This document shows positions 26,860 to 43,123 of a stretch of DNA of 43,465 nt, piece by piece. Below the pieces are notes generated by a model that worked only from the letters and a program-made list of their open reading frames with translations, searched no databases and had not been told where the DNA came from. This stretch comes from a virus (Duplodnaviria > Heunggongvirae > Uroviricota > Caudoviricetes), in IMG/VR virus record IMGVR_UViG_2563366823_000003; one strand, given 5' to 3'. How positions within the stretch are numbered: position 1 is the first letter of the stretch; the number at the start of each line of letters is the position of its first letter. The position numbers and the translations under genes are program-made.

Positions 26860-27111
26860 CTAACAGGATGCTCTGACTCGCAATTCATCCTGCAGTTTAT
26901 CATTTCCCATAATGTCACTTACCCTCATCGGTAAAAAAATTGCCTTTCGACCATTACGATACATCATTGATTTTTTGGTTTCAGGGAAGTAATCCATTTC
27001 GACTATAACTGACAGGTCATCACGACGTATGACTGCATATTTGCTACTAAATGGTTTCTTTATTTTTTCCACGATGCCTCCAGGTTTATAAGTACAAACG
27101 GTTATATCCAC
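26860..27111 (-). CDS. hypothetical protein (83 aa), AT-rich
   Basis: ORF in the low-GC region next to hokD; no recognisable motifs. Confidence 0.35.
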   Translation of the reverse strand: MDITVCTYKPGGIVEKIKKPFSSKYAVIRRDDLSVIVEMDYFPETKKSMMYRNGRKAIFLPMRVSDIMGNDKLQDELRVRASC

Positions 27112-27379
27112 ATAGAGACAAAAATATTAATCTGAAAAATATTTATTTCACGTCGTATATTTGATTATTTAATGTGCAGGTGCAATGACTTTTATTTTTT
27201 GTTGTGTATATAATCAAATATATGGTTATTTTTCACCCTGCGCATTCAGCGCGCAACAAAAAACCCGCCGAAGCGCTGAGGGATCCCCATAAATCAGCGC
27301 TGAAGCGGGTTAAGTGCGGGTGCGTTGAGGATGCCTGACTCATCAGAGGTGGCGAGGGATTTCTCCCTCGCCTGGTCTC

Positions 27380-27535
27380 TTACTCCTCAGGTTCGTAAGC
27401 TGTGAAGACAGCGACCTCCGTCTGGCCGGTTCGGATTCGTACCTCGCAGAGGTCTTTCCTCGTTACCAGTGCCGTCACTATGACGGTTAAACAGATGACG
27501 ATCAGGGCGATTAACATCGCCTTTTGCTGCTTCAT
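27380..27535 (-). CDS. hokD: Hok/Gef-family membrane toxin (type I toxin-antitoxin)
   Basis: 51 aa MKQQKAMLIALIVICLTVIVTALVTRKDLCEVRIRTGQTEVAVFTAYEPEE matches recalled HokD/RelF; hairpin-rich 3' UTR and in-frame upstream extension. Confidence 0.8.
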   Translation of the reverse strand: MKQQKAMLIALIVICLTVIVTALVTRKDLCEVRIRTGQTEVAVFTAYEPEE

Positions 27536-27677
27536 AGCCTGCTTCTCCTTGCCTTTCGGCACGTAAGAGGCTAACCTACATGTGCAAAGCATGAAATTGG
27601 CCTCAGATTAATGTTAAGCGTCTTGCCGGACGCGTAATGTTAACTGGGGCTTTTCTCTATCTGCCTTTGGTGTTCGT

Positions 27678-27717
27678 GCCCGAGGCAGATAGCCTCAAGC
27701 ACCCGCCGTGATTCTAC
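27678..27717. repeat. left copy of a ~40-bp imperfect direct repeat flanking the AT-rich cargo island
   Basis: gcccgaggcagatagcctcaagcacccgccgtgattctac versus gcctgagacagacaacctcaagcacccgcagcaattctac at 29698-29737, ~82% identity. Confidence 0.6.
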
Positions 27718-27942
27718 AAAAACATTACCCACCTTTCCAGCAATTCACAACAACTCCATGCAAATAGTAAGTAGAATAATAAGTTATTAGTATTAGCAAT
27801 TTACTTAGTTTCTAATTTGTGCCAATGATTTTCATTTTTGCATGAAAAATACCTTAACATTTTATATTTACTTACTATTTGTAAGCCCCATCAGTTCTTT
27901 CTGATGGCGGCTGGTATTTCAGTTCCAGATATAGTATATGCT

Positions 27943-28971
27943 TTACGCCTTAATAGGGTTAATCACATTTCCGCTATCCGTACCATAGTATTTTTTTGTA
28001 GTCATGCCTTGTTTATAATAATCATTTAACAGTTTGAGAAAGTTTCTTCCTTGCCTCTCATCTTCTATGACTAATTTACCATGCTCATTGGTCTTAAACT
28101 CTTCGTTCTGAAACATTTTTAACACATCATTCATAGCTTGAACATCATTCTTTTCCAGAGCCGTATGGTTACCTTTCTCAGCGATATGAGTGAGAATTTT
28201 TCTCAGTGATGGCTTATGAAGAATAGCTTGTTCAATAACATCTAAACCTTCAATAAGATCAAGTTCTTTAATTGTATTTAATGTTTTTTGTGCAGCTTCT
28301 GTAAACTCAACCTCCAAGCCTACAATAGCCTCAAAACTTTTCTTATGAAATACATAAAATTGATCTTTTATATAAATACAATCGATTTTGTCATCAAAAT
28401 TGACTGCGCTGCCATCAAATGATCTTAACTCTTTATCTGTTTTATCAAACAAAGCGAATACGCGCTGAGTCATATTTTGTGGTTCATTTGTTGTGACTTT
28501 CCCCCTGCTGATTTTTCGGAAAGAATAAGTGACGTCAGCCCCCTTTTGGACTTTAATACAATAGGCCCACAAATCATTCTGAACCTCAGCAAGAGAGGTA
28601 AGTACAACTGGTTTATCATTCTTTATATCGTTATTAATAACTTTTGAAAACGATATCGCGTTATTCATAGCATAGGCATAAATCTTATTGTCAATATCAT
28701 CATCAATAACAGTATACTTTTTCATCACAATATCATCTTTCGAAGCATGAGAAATAATCTGGTTTGATAAAGTATACTTAAAAAATTTAGCAATATCTGG
28801 AGCGATAGGAGCTTTAATGATTTTAAAATCGAATTTATCAACAACTCTTGCGGTTCTACTCATACCCGCTTTAAGATGTCTAGTAATGAAATACAACGAT
28901 ATTTTCGCCGCATCATCATCCTTAAGTTGCTCAGCATACTCTAATAATTCTTCAAGCTTTAACATTTTCAT
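27943..28971 (-). CDS. 342-aa soluble hypothetical protein; candidate defence effector (KwaB-like?)
   Basis: Very AT-rich ORF; its ATG overlaps the stop of the upstream membrane ORF (ATGA); Kiwa assignment is hypothesis only. Confidence 0.55.
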   Translation of the reverse strand: MKMLKLEELLEYAEQLKDDDAAKISLYFITRHLKAGMSRTARVVDKFDFKIIKAPIAPDIAKFFKYTLSNQIISHASKDDIVMKKYTVIDDDIDNKIYAYAMNNAISFSKVINNDIKNDKPVVLTSLAEVQNDLWAYCIKVQKGADVTYSFRKISRGKVTTNEPQNMTQRVFALFDKTDKELRSFDGSAVNFDDKIDCIYIKDQFYVFHKKSFEAIVGLEVEFTEAAQKTLNTIKELDLIEGLDVIEQAILHKPSLRKILTHIAEKGNHTALEKNDVQAMNDVLKMFQNEEFKTNEHGKLVIEDERQGRNFLKLLNDYYKQGMTTKKYYGTDSGNVINPIKA

Positions 28972-29583
28972 TCCTTATGGGATTCAGCATAAAAAAGTTT
29001 TGGGCCCACGTCCTCAACATCAAGAAGATCATCTTCCTCCAAATACTTGGATTTAGTCAAAACCATACCAGTGCGTTTTTTGTCGCTTTCTAAATCCAAA
29101 TATGTAACTTGATATAAAGTATAATTAATACTTATTGTAGGATTTATAAGTATCATGCTTGAATTAATATATATTAAAGCCGTTACCGTTAACAATATTG
29201 CTATAGGTATAACATTAGTTAAATGTGGATAGGTCCTGAAATACAAACGGAATTATATATGTAAAAAGATAGCTTATTGATTCATTGTTTTTATTTTCAA
29301 TATCTATAACTCTTACAGTTCTACCACTAGTGGCGCATCGACGTTTTATATTTTTTAAAAAAATTGTTAATCCTACAATACCAAATAATGATAATACACC
29401 AATGACACTGACCGCGCCAAAGTATTTAAAGAAAATAGTTAATGATTCAACACTTATACCTTTCCAATTTAAATAGCTTCTATAAGTATACAATTGCACA
29501 AAACACATGATAAAGAATAGGGGAAGGTATGACACTATAAATAGCGAAACTCTAGCACCTAAATGTAGTTTATTTACTCTCAT
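28968..29583 (-). CDS. multi-pass membrane protein (~205 aa, 4 TM) apparently split by a frameshift; KwaA-like?
   Basis: Two overlapping ORFs (29215-29583 and 28968-29252) each with two hydrophobic helices; second frame has no ATG at its head (TTG). Confidence 0.45.
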
Positions 29584-29697
29584 AACTACCCCACAGCCTA
29601 CACGTCTAGTATTTTATGTTATTTCGAATAATTATGCATCAGATTACCATCCTACAATTGTGCATAAAACGAGCATTTTGCTGATTTTTCTGCGGAT

Positions 29698-29737
29698 GCC
29701 TGAGACAGACAACCTCAAGCACCCGCAGCAATTCTAC
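29698..29737. repeat. right copy of the direct repeat flanking the cargo island
   Basis: See the left copy at 27678-27717. Confidence 0.6.
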
Positions 29738-29845
29738 TTAACTCTCCTTTTCCCGCAAACCGTTTTTATCCCCAGCGGCAAATCGAATACACCACCAGCG
29801 CCACCGCCATCGCAATTCCTACCGTGGTGAATGCTTCAGGCCAGG

Positions 29846-30361
29846 TCATCGCAAAACATCCTCCGCGCTTATCAGTTCGTTCCGCTTCAGGTAGTCCATC
29901 GCCTTCTCCGGTAATTTGCAGTCCGGCTTAGCTTTTTCCAGTTGGCTGGCCAGTCGTTTAACCCACATTGTTAATTCGCTAACCTGATTGCCGGATGCTG
30001 ATGGATTGTCGGCTTTACCCAAAATGGCAGCACAGCAGACCTCTTTGAGCACCCAGTCAATGGCGTCTTTCCATGCTCCGGTTTCAACTGGCGGATTCTC
30101 ACGCCGTACCTGTTCATAAAAGCGCACAGCTTTAACCAGTCCTTCTGATGTCACCGGGGCTGGCGGGGCCGTGAATAACGCCTGAATTTCATAGTTTGGT
30201 CTGTCGTTACAATCTTCTTTTGTCGGGACATATTTCCAGTCACCAGCCCACTGCTTCCCCTGAAAGTCTGTAACGTCTTTTTTCACGTAGCGATATCGCC
30301 ATGCAACTGGTTTTGCCTGCCCTGCCGTTTCATGCCCTTCCTGATAATTAATCTCGCTCAT
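29846..30361 (-). CDS. hypothetical phage early protein (171 aa)
   Basis: ORF with ATGA start/stop overlap to the upstream small gene. Confidence 0.5.
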   Translation of the reverse strand: MSEINYQEGHETAGQAKPVAWRYRYVKKDVTDFQGKQWAGDWKYVPTKEDCNDRPNYEIQALFTAPPAPVTSEGLVKAVRFYEQVRRENPPVETGAWKDAIDWVLKEVCCAAILGKADNPSASGNQVSELTMWVKRLASQLEKAKPDCKLPEKAMDYLKRNELISAEDVLR

Positions 30362-30534
30362 TCATCGCCCCACTCATCACAATATGCTTCTACCGGAGTT
30401 TTTCCTGCTTCGTAGTCATCACTCCAGGCTTCAGCATCAGCAGCACTTCCACCACGTAACTCTGCATAGTTCATTAACAGTTCATGCCATTCTTCAAAAC
30501 TGACGTTGTATTTAGTTGAACCAAAATCAGCCAT
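30358..30534 (-). CDS. small hypothetical protein (58 aa)
   Basis: MADFGSTKYNVSFEEWHELLMNYAELRGGSAADAEAWSDDYEAGKTPVEAYCDEWGDE; below track cutoff; coupled to both neighbours. Confidence 0.4.
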   Translation of the reverse strand: MADFGSTKYNVSFEEWHELLMNYAELRGGSAADAEAWSDDYEAGKTPVEAYCDEWGDE

Positions 30535-36171: not shown

Positions 36172-36571
36172 ATTCATTTCCTTACTGGTTGTGTGAGAAC
36201 TCCAGTAAAGATACCACCAAAGCCCGGAGGTGGTGAAATAAAACCGGGCACAACACGAAGGCGCATTTCTGGTATCCATAAAGAGTCGGTCTTGTCTGTT
36301 AAATTTAAATGGTGGGAGTGCGCCTCCGGTTGTAAATAACGACATTGCTTTGTGTAGTCTTTGGCGGCATCAGTTCTACTCCGTGGCTGCCCTGCCGCCC
36401 CTTTTTAAAGTGAATTTTGTGATGCGGTGAATGCGGCTAAGCGCACGCGGAACAGTTAAAAGCATCAGTGTTATGGGTGGATTATCCGGCGTTAATTGTT
36501 AACTGGTTAACGTCACCTGGAGGCACCAGGCACCGCATCGACAAAATTCATTTGTAAAAATGGAGATAATT

Positions 36572-40913: not shown

Positions 40914-41120
40914 ATGACAAAAATTATGAGATATGACGATGTTAAACCATGTCCGTTTTGTGGTTGTCCATCTGTTACGGTGAAAGCAATTTCAGGATAT
41001 TACCGGGCAAAATGCAACGGATGCGAATCCCGAACTGGCTATGGTGGAAGTGAAAAAGAAGCGCTCGAAAGATGGAATAAACGAACCACTGAAAATATTA
41101 ATGGAGGCGTTCATGTATAA
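40914..41120 (+). CDS. ralR: restriction alleviation protein Lar/RalR
   Basis: MTKIMRYDDVKPCPFCGCPSVTVKAISGYYRAKCNGCESRTGYGGSEKEALERWNKRT matches recalled Lar. Confidence 0.7.
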   Translation: MTKIMRYDDVKPCPFCGCPSVTVKAISGYYRAKCNGCESRTGYGGSEKEALERWNKRTTENINGGVHV

Positions 41121-41301
41121 AATTACTGCTACAATTGAAAAGGAAGGTGGCACTCCTACTAACTGGACAAGATATTCAAAATCTAAACTAACGAAATCAG
41201 AATGCGAAAAAATGCTCTCAGGGAAAAAAGAAGCAGGCGTTTCCAGAGAGCAGAAAGTAAAACTGATAAATTTTAATTGCGAGAAACTTCTGTCATCGTG
41301 A
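41113..41301 (+). CDS. small hypothetical protein (62 aa)
   Basis: ATG 41113 overlapping the lar stop; the track start upstream is non-ATG. Confidence 0.4.
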   Translation: MYKITATIEKEGGTPTNWTRYSKSKLTKSECEKMLSGKKEAGVSREQKVKLINFNCEKLLSS

Positions 41302-42731: not shown

Positions 42732-42863
42732 TTTTAACGTAAATGGATTGTTAAATGCATTTTGGTTGTGATATAACCAAAAAAGACCGGAATACAGAAA
42801 TTCGAGTAAATTTCGGGGAATTTCGGGGGAGACGTTTGCAACTGATTGATTTTAAATACAATT

Positions 42864-42898
42864 AAAAAAAGACCGAATACGATTCCTGTATTCGGTCC
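42864..42898. repeat. attR: right copy of the att core inside the sdsR terminator stem
   Basis: aaaaaaagaccgaatacgattcctgtattcggtcc matches 1068-1098. Confidence 0.7.
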
Positions 42899-42966
42899 AG
42901 GGAAATGGCTCTTGGGAGAGAGCCGTGCGCTAAAAGTTGGCATTAATGCAGGCTTAGTTGCCTTGC
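42864..42966 (-). ncRNA. sdsR: SdsR (RyeB) small RNA; antisense RyeA/SraC overlaps on the plus strand
   Basis: Minus-strand gcaaggcaactaagcctgcattaatgccaacttttagcgcacggctctctcccaagagccatttccctggaccgaatacaggaatcgtattcggtcttttttt matches recalled SdsR incl. terminator. Confidence 0.8.
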
Positions 42967-43123
42967 TCTTTAAGAATAGATGACGACGCCAGGTTTTCCA
43001 GTTTGCGTGCAAAATGGTCAATAAAAAGCGTGGTGGTCATCAGCTTAAATGTTAAAAACCGCCCGTTCTGGTGAAAGAACTGAGGCGGTTTTTTATTGGA
43101 AATCAAAAGGCTATTTTAGGTAA

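Follow-up and report, generated by a model that had tools for sequence, protein, structure and literature searches.

Introduction

The tac/fbi architecture of hok/sok, a type I toxin locus, has been described (PMC9841398), and anti-phage activity has been shown for Kiwa operons other than the one considered here (PMC11785009). Here we analyze a locus at which these two systems are joined. In a 43,465-nucleotide (nt) stretch of viral DNA (Duplodnaviria; Heunggongvirae; Uroviricota; Caudoviricetes; IMG/VR record IMGVR_UViG_2563366823_000003; the whole stretch is hereafter called the window), two 41-nt direct repeats bracket a foreign insert, which profile matches show to be a Kiwa defence operon, kwaA-kwaB. 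The left repeat copy and the 420 base pairs (bp) downstream of it form a complete hok/sok locus, with promoter, tac, RF01794 leader, Hok coding sequence and fbi. This locus differs from those described in that its first 41 nt, from the -10 box to position +28, are doubled, and the upstream copy is severed from hok and joined to the foreign operon. We consider it probable, at roughly 70%, that the repeats are two copies of the hok promoter/5' element left by recombination of a Kiwa cassette into a lambdoid prophage.

Several features of this locus have counterparts in other known systems. Like the Kiwa loci of PMC11785009, it contains a two-gene kwaA-kwaB operon of low G+C content (GC), and it is prophage-borne, as many reported Kiwa loci are; it differs in that its KwaB is distant, kwaA is frameshifted in the window, and the cassette is fused to the hok promoter/leader in every E. 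coli context seen. The locus also resembles the mosaic exchange of lambdoid phages by relaxed recombination (PMC3945230), in that one module is found on three backbones and has its breakpoints in a short conserved sequence, and Qin is a known partner in such exchange. In contrast to ordinary replacement, which leaves no duplication, the conserved sequence is here duplicated around the cargo with a Campbell-like hybrid signature. Finally, morons and prophage defence hotspots such as those of P2/P4 (PMC9122126) resemble the locus in having, at a variable prophage position, defence cargo that is foreign, low in GC and expressed independently, but the locus is not a multi-cargo site bounded by the same repeats: the duplication occurs only with Kiwa. 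The case is a tidy instance of prophage mosaicism, which is known, rather than a new class of element. The hok/sok locus, Kiwa, prophage morons and relaxed recombination are all already known, whereas the 41-bp promoter/tac duplication and its hybrid signature appear to be undescribed in the literature searched; a survey that found hok enriched in prophages, and not near defence systems, does not mention the present arrangement (bioRxiv 10.1101/2025.08.07.668861).

Results and Discussion

Imperfect 41-nt direct repeats bracket a low-GC insert

All genes in the region of the repeats and the insert lie on the minus strand. The features to which we refer are as follows (window coordinates).

27315-27338, minus: fbi element in the hok 3' untranslated region (UTR), complementary to the tac core
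27380-27535, minus: hok toxin coding sequence, 51 codons (Pfam PF01848 HOK_GEF, 2.7e-23)
27530-27704, minus: hok 5' leader (Rfam RF01794), with the sok antisense gene within it on the opposite strand
27677-27717, minus: left repeat copy, with the hok -10 box, discriminator, predicted transcription start and first 28 nt of the hok mRNA (tac plus 5' hairpin)
27693-27706, minus: core of the left copy, whose minus strand reads GC followed by the tac element GGGUGCUUGAGG
27707-27717, minus: cassette-side (inner) arm of the left copy, CGTGATTCTAC, cassette-specific
27718-27942, minus: cassette tail, from the kwaB stop to the left copy, which gives hok a new -35-like hexamer (TGGAAA, 27739-27734)
27718-29696, minus: Kiwa cassette, 32% GC, between the repeats
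27943-28971, minus: kwaB (DUF4868; PADLOC PDLC00223 KwaB, 1.5e-159; Pfam PF16162)
28968-29583, minus: kwaA, membrane protein, here as two open reading frames (ORFs), 29215-29583 and 28968-29246
29690-29728, minus: hairpin at the predicted 5' end of the kwaAB transcript, in which tac pairs with the inner arm and 7 cassette-specific bases
29697-29737, minus: right repeat copy, with the resident hok -10 box (TAGAAT, 29736-29731) and hok-type leader nt +1 to +28
29697-29712, minus: cassette-side (inner) arm of the right copy, TGCCTGAGACAGACAA, cassette-specific
29713-29726, minus: core of the right copy, the identical 14 nt

A repeat search of the window reported a single direct pair, 27677-27717 and 29697-29737, whose 41-nt copies are identical at 34 of 41 positions (83%) and lie 2,020 bp apart, start to start. 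Both copies contain the same 14-nt core, CCTCAAGCACCCGC on the plus strand, and the motif ATTCTAC is also common to both. The chance of at least 34 matches in 41 is 1.2e-14 per pair, which corresponds to about 1.2e-5 pairs expected over the whole 43-kb window, and in shuffles of positions 27000-30500 (n = 30) the best 41-nt match reached only 25-28 of 41. The imperfect repeats of about 40 bp described in an initial annotation of this DNA are therefore real, and one base longer than was noted there. The same annotation held that the repeats flank a low-GC insert exactly, and the base composition agrees: the 1,979 bp between the copies (27718-29696) have a GC fraction of 0.32, compared with 0.45 and 0.47 in the 1-kb flanks. 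The tttct-rich segments that it reported before each copy are literally present, but they are not homologous. Gapped local alignments of the flanks were matched by 514/1000 and 311/1000 shuffles, and the repeat is therefore confined to about 41 nt; we accordingly rejected its extension into the flanks, whether into the tttct-rich stretches or into the -35 region.

The left copy is the promoter and 5' end of hok

The region to the left of the insert matches the full hok leader model of Rfam (RF01794, model positions 1-157) with 113 bits, against a gathering score of 59, from 27704 to 27530 on the minus strand, down to the hok start codon. Position 1 of the model aligns at 27704, inside the left copy. 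A promoter scan called a promoter-like TGGAAA-17-TAGAAT at 27739..27711; its -10 box, TAGAAT, occupies 27716-27711, and transcription is predicted to start at about 27704. Because the leader model begins inside the left copy and the promoter-like hexamers end at 27711, we conclude that this copy comprises three parts of the hok unit: its -10 box, its predicted transcription start, and mRNA nt +1 to +28. The initial annotation had offered a duplicated hok 5'-leader element as its second explanation of the repeats, and had asked whether the left copy lies within the hok/mok 5' UTR. That explanation proved correct, and the copy does lie there, extending from the -10 box to nt +28.

The rest of the locus fits a complete hok unit. 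The toxin homologues in homologous loci are annotated Hok/Gef or HokD. The 5' end of the mRNA, which contains the tac core, forms a duplex of -30.3 kcal/mol with fbi (27338-27315) as computed by RNAduplex, and in the minimum free energy fold of the full-length hok mRNA the 5' end is paired with the 3' end, which agrees with the tac/fbi arrangement of PMC9841398.

The right copy is a truncated hok 5' element upstream of kwaA

The right copy carries the same hok-type sequence up to +28, past which it breaks into Kiwa-specific sequence; the homology to hok ends there, 113 nt upstream of the kwaA start. By direct reading of the sequence, a -35-like hexamer, TTGCGG, is located upstream of the copy at 29758-29753, with a 16-nt spacer, below the threshold of the scan. 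The equivalent promoter in Qin reads TTGGCG-17-TAAAAT. The hairpin at the predicted 5' end of the kwaAB transcript has a 14-bp stem and a folding energy of -25.9 kcal/mol (z = -4.97).

We rejected two other roles for the right copy. It is not a second functional hok leader: a search of 29300-29900 yielded no hok/sok leader at Rfam E <= 10, only spurious microRNA matches, and, with homology ending after +28, the copy is a truncated fragment. Nor is it a terminator, as no terminator-like site was found on either strand of 27200-29900 and the run that follows the hairpin on the gene strand is one of A residues.

Directly upstream of this hok promoter, a 27-codon ORF (29766-29849, minus strand) encodes a hydrophobic peptide, MTWPEAFTTVGIAMAVALVVYSICRWG. 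Members of the 'TTAACTCTCCTTTTCCCGC' flank family conserve it, and the RefSeq loci read carry no annotation for it.

Empty sites reveal hybrid repeat copies and recombination breakpoints

Related prophages contain a single-copy empty site, as the initial annotation had proposed to look for. Such a site, which we denote B-core-B', is present in O157:H7, ETEC6 and Sakai prophages, in 933W and 76 other phage records, and in the Qin prophage of NCTC9022; one example reads TGCCCGAGGCAGATAG-core-AGCAATTCTAC. An in-silico deletion with its join in the core agrees with the NCTC9022 sequence at 99.9% identity over 1,214 bp, which is compatible with either the pre-insertion state or loss of the cassette by recombination between the repeats.

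Relative to the empty site, each repeat copy is a hybrid: the left copy is B-core-P', where P' is CGTGATTCTAC, and the right copy is P-core-B', where P is TGCCTGAGACAGACAA. All three differences between the left copy and the empty allele fall in its 11-nt inner arm, and all four differences of the right copy fall in its 16-nt inner arm. If differences were randomly scattered, the joint chance of this one-sided pattern would be C(11,3)/C(41,3) x C(16,4)/C(41,4), or about 3e-4. In a core scan that identified 85 hok-type viral contigs, the B and B' arms were common hok alleles, whereas P and P' occurred at only one locus, a Kiwa locus (L038). Because the differences are confined to the inner arms, duplication in situ followed by divergence is excluded; the inner arms were brought in by the cassette, and it is in the core that the pieces join.

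The outer arm of the right copy varies with the backbone, matching the empty-site allele of its own backbone in each case. In Qin it reads TTTTAC-TTAACTCCCGC, as in the empty Qin allele, and in the window, CEA224S and CP057983 it reads TTCTAC-TTAACTCTCC, as in their empty alleles. This backbone specificity places a crossover at 29713-29733. On the left side, the hok-leader allele of viral contig L137 shows 8 differing sites as far as 27676, with identity from 27677 onward. Together, these sequence comparisons show that both repeat copies coincide with real recombination breakpoints, located in them or at their edge.

The hok-Kiwa module is carried on three prophage backbones

Of 5,426 complete E. 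coli genomes, about 4,700 carried the hok locus, as did 77 phage records; one of these is 933W, where it is annotated sokW. The cassette tail (27718-27942) was present at >=99% identity in 156 of the 5,426 genomes (about 3%); it was chromosomal in all of them, accompanied by both repeats in all of them, and found only together with Kiwa (156/156). Across these genomes the whole Kiwa cassette is at least 98-99% identical. No cassette was found on plasmids, the sole match being a weak one to the coding region in a Vibrio plasmid, and the tail was not found in the isolated-phage collection. Recognition of a fixed hok-Kiwa module in this share of complete genomes should aid annotation of the locus.

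All but one of the carriers (155/156) are Qin prophages, in which the order is queH, right copy, kwaA, kwaB, left copy, hok leader. In at least 41 carriers hokD is directly attached; in the remaining Qin carriers a K-12-like block (an insertion sequence (IS) remnant, ydfW, flxA, ydfV and relBE) parts the leader from the hokD coding sequence at about 27534. As most carriers thus lack an attached hok, preservation of hok is not required for persistence of the module. Three backbones bear the cassette: Qin, one common to CEA224S and CP057983, and that of the window, which is identical to GCA_000352645.1 KB733102.1.

The block itself represents a second, independent insertion in the same small locus. 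In K-12-like Qin (L005, 4880-5240, about window position 27534) the ISNCY remnant and the ydfW, flxA, ydfV and relBE genes cut the leader from hokD at the start codon.

Origin of the repeats

We weighed several ways in which two such copies could come to flank the operon. That their similarity is due to chance, or to a generic low-complexity likeness of two intergenic regions, is refuted: apart from the short length of the repeat nothing favors it, only about 1e-5 such pairs would be expected per window, shuffles top out at 28/41, and the repeat sequence is a known functional element. A target-site duplication, generated by transposition-like insertion of the cassette and since diverged, would explain direct repeats that flank a foreign low-GC insert exactly. 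However, known target-site duplications are far shorter than 41 bp, mismatches occupy 17% of positions in the repeat, against a cassette that is nearly invariant among the 156 genomes, and the cassette has neither a transposase nor terminal inverted repeats at its ends. Most tellingly, 7/7 differences lie on the cassette-side arms; this one-sided distribution, as read from the sequences, effectively refutes the model, which we regard as exceedingly improbable. The hybrid B-core-P' and P-core-B' structure, with its identical core and the existence of a precise empty site, formally resembles attL and attR, and the repeats might then be sites at which an integrase or integron-like recombinase swaps cargo. 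We judge this very improbable, since the 2-kb unit contains no integrase or recombinase gene, only a single cargo type has been seen between the copies, and function constrains the core, as the tac element of hok, which accounts for its conservation without an att role.

A further alternative, which we consider unlikely, is that the Kiwa regulatory region is a hok-derived promoter/leader gained earlier elsewhere, and that two illegitimate joins, followed by selection that kept the hok 5' end, produced the present locus. On this view a single crossover in the core would not lie behind the repeats, which would be two regulatory elements related by homology. Unrelated sequences (the Kiwa tail, L117, L037 and L077) do adjoin hok at the same point, ...ATTCTAC|, so that illegitimate recombination together with selection can yield abrupt joins at the border of the -10 box; moreover, the donor or circle junction was not found in viral and metagenome contigs. 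Against this, the model requires two separate events, each landing by chance in register within one 41-nt stretch, variants of hok alleles can be recognized in the inner arms (P closely resembles TGCCTGAGACAGATAG, the commonest allele), and the backbone breakpoints fall inside the core.

Our preferred reading, that homologous recombination at a resident hok site left the two copies, must itself be set against several observations. For RecA-type recombination, 14 identical bases (34/41 overall) make a very short homology. The junction expected of a donor or circle, P-core-P', gave 0 matches in viral and metagenome contigs. The Kiwa relatives in Yersinia, Martelella and Symbiopectobacterium share the coding region only, with no hok-like core within 4 kb. 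A secondary deletion may have produced the empty Qin site of NCTC9022, which therefore does not polarize the event. The -35 hexamer of the right copy, TTGCGG, matches at only 3/6 positions and was not called by the promoter scan; a weak promoter inside the 113-nt Kiwa leader could serve instead of the predicted one. Lastly, in about 3/4 of the Kiwa-bearing genomes the left copy heads only a hok leader, with relBE/flxA/IS DNA before hokD. We also rejected the idea that the hok-like element is intrinsic to Kiwa, given that the relatives in the three other genera lack the core within 4 kb.

A proposed history and its functional consequences

Recombination at the resident site could have proceeded as follows. 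DNA that carried a diverged hok-promoter fragment would have recombined by homology within the tac core of a resident hok site, most economically if one crossover took place with a donor that was circular or tandem. Recombination of short, diverged homologies between lambdoid phages and defective prophages, Qin among them, is known for phage Rad52-like recombinases (PMC3945230). Either such a recombinase or host RecA may have acted here, and a dedicated integrase would be unneeded. The whole hok-Kiwa module would then have spread among prophage backbones by ordinary mosaic recombination, with the repeats again serving as junctions.

In the resulting arrangement, the resident hok promoter in the right copy would now drive kwaAB, producing a transcript that begins with a stable tac hairpin. 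The left copy, supplied with a new -35 hexamer by the cassette tail, would keep the exact 5' end on which tac-fbi and tac-ucb regulation of the hok mRNA depends. The insertion would in this way have given the cargo a promoter without inactivating hok/sok.

If this history is right, the locus offers a base-pair view of how a defence operon is installed in a prophage without a dedicated recombinase. It would indicate that an insertion can borrow a resident constitutive promoter yet keep the exact RNA 5' end needed by a type I toxin, and that tac, a conserved RNA element, doubles as a recombination junction. A practical consequence concerns the cloning of this Kiwa variant 'with its native promoter', because that promoter is probably the hok promoter. 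More speculatively, the tac core may be a recombinase-free 'landing pad' at which a promoterless 2-kb Kiwa cassette bearing a diverged version of the element, once excised as a circle, re-inserts through short homology at the hok loci of other prophages, on each occasion capturing the constitutive hok promoter and restoring the hok 5' end, and the tac hairpin might further tie expression of kwaAB to hok-type control by RNA folding; we think this quite unlikely.

No support for a general cargo-exchange site

The initial annotation suggested that cargo is exchanged by recombination between the same repeats. As a general mechanism this is unsupported: in the 156 E. coli genomes, the seven viral contigs that were long enough and the ten contig contexts of the exact KwaB protein, every two-copy locus seen contained the same Kiwa cassette. 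Among the 85 hok-type viral contigs, two copies occurred at the Kiwa locus only. The left junction was present in nine viral contigs, 7/9 of which contain both copies and the same cassette; the other two (L132 and L133) stop short of the right copy. Upstream of hok the sequence varies, and low-GC cargo occurs there in L050, L100, L117 and L131 without a second copy of the repeat.

Some of this other cargo merits description. In L100 (oriented segment 850-2485) a PD-Lambda-2_C-like protein (1.4e-41) and a 'cll'-like partner lie upstream of the hok promoter. The cargo of L050, L117 and L131 has no PADLOC match and could represent uncharacterised defence candidates. In at least four cases (L117, L037, L077 and the window at 27717/27718) unrelated sequences meet the hok unit at the same base, ...ATTCTAC|, just upstream of the -10 box; selection for hok units that stay intact, acting after recombination of whatever kind, would be expected to leave such a very sharp shared boundary. 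REL606 (L006, 2080-2450), E. coli C and many Qin prophages have an extra sequence of about 380 bp between the hok promoter region and queH. We rejected this hokD-queH segment of REL606 and E. coli C as unrelated, since it lies upstream of the promoter and is not flanked by repeats.

The Kiwa operon and its tail

Within the 2-kb unit, kwaA and kwaB are the only ORFs with family matches, and no integrase, recombinase or transposase was found there. The start of kwaB in RefSeq homologues corresponds to 28965. Compared with the structurally solved KwaB of O55:H7, the protein encoded here is distant (E = 1.5e-5).

In the window, a single additional T near 29224 splits kwaA; none of the other copies read has it. 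The two halves match positions 2-122 (1.1e-58) and 116-204 (4.2e-39) of the 205-position PADLOC KwaA profile, and the gene is intact (204 amino acids) in L002 and L141-L149. Consistent with one added base, the repeat spacing is 2,020 in the window assembly and 2,019 in all other loci. The frameshift may reflect an assembly error, or kwaA may be a genuine pseudogene here, with Kiwa disabled as a result.

The cassette tail contains a 13-bp perfect inverted repeat (27761-27773 and 27869-27881) with 95 nt between its arms. This AT-rich segment folds better than shuffled sequences (z = -3.2), and no canonical terminator was detected in it.

Small RNAs near the end of the window

Three small RNA features lie near the end of the window.

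41119-41297: RalA antitoxin small RNA (213 bits)
36349-36400: DicF small RNA (63.5 bits)
42860-43004: chromosomal ryeA/ryeB (SraC/SdsR) pair

These features indicate that the window is a lambdoid prophage that adjoins the ryeA/ryeB locus.

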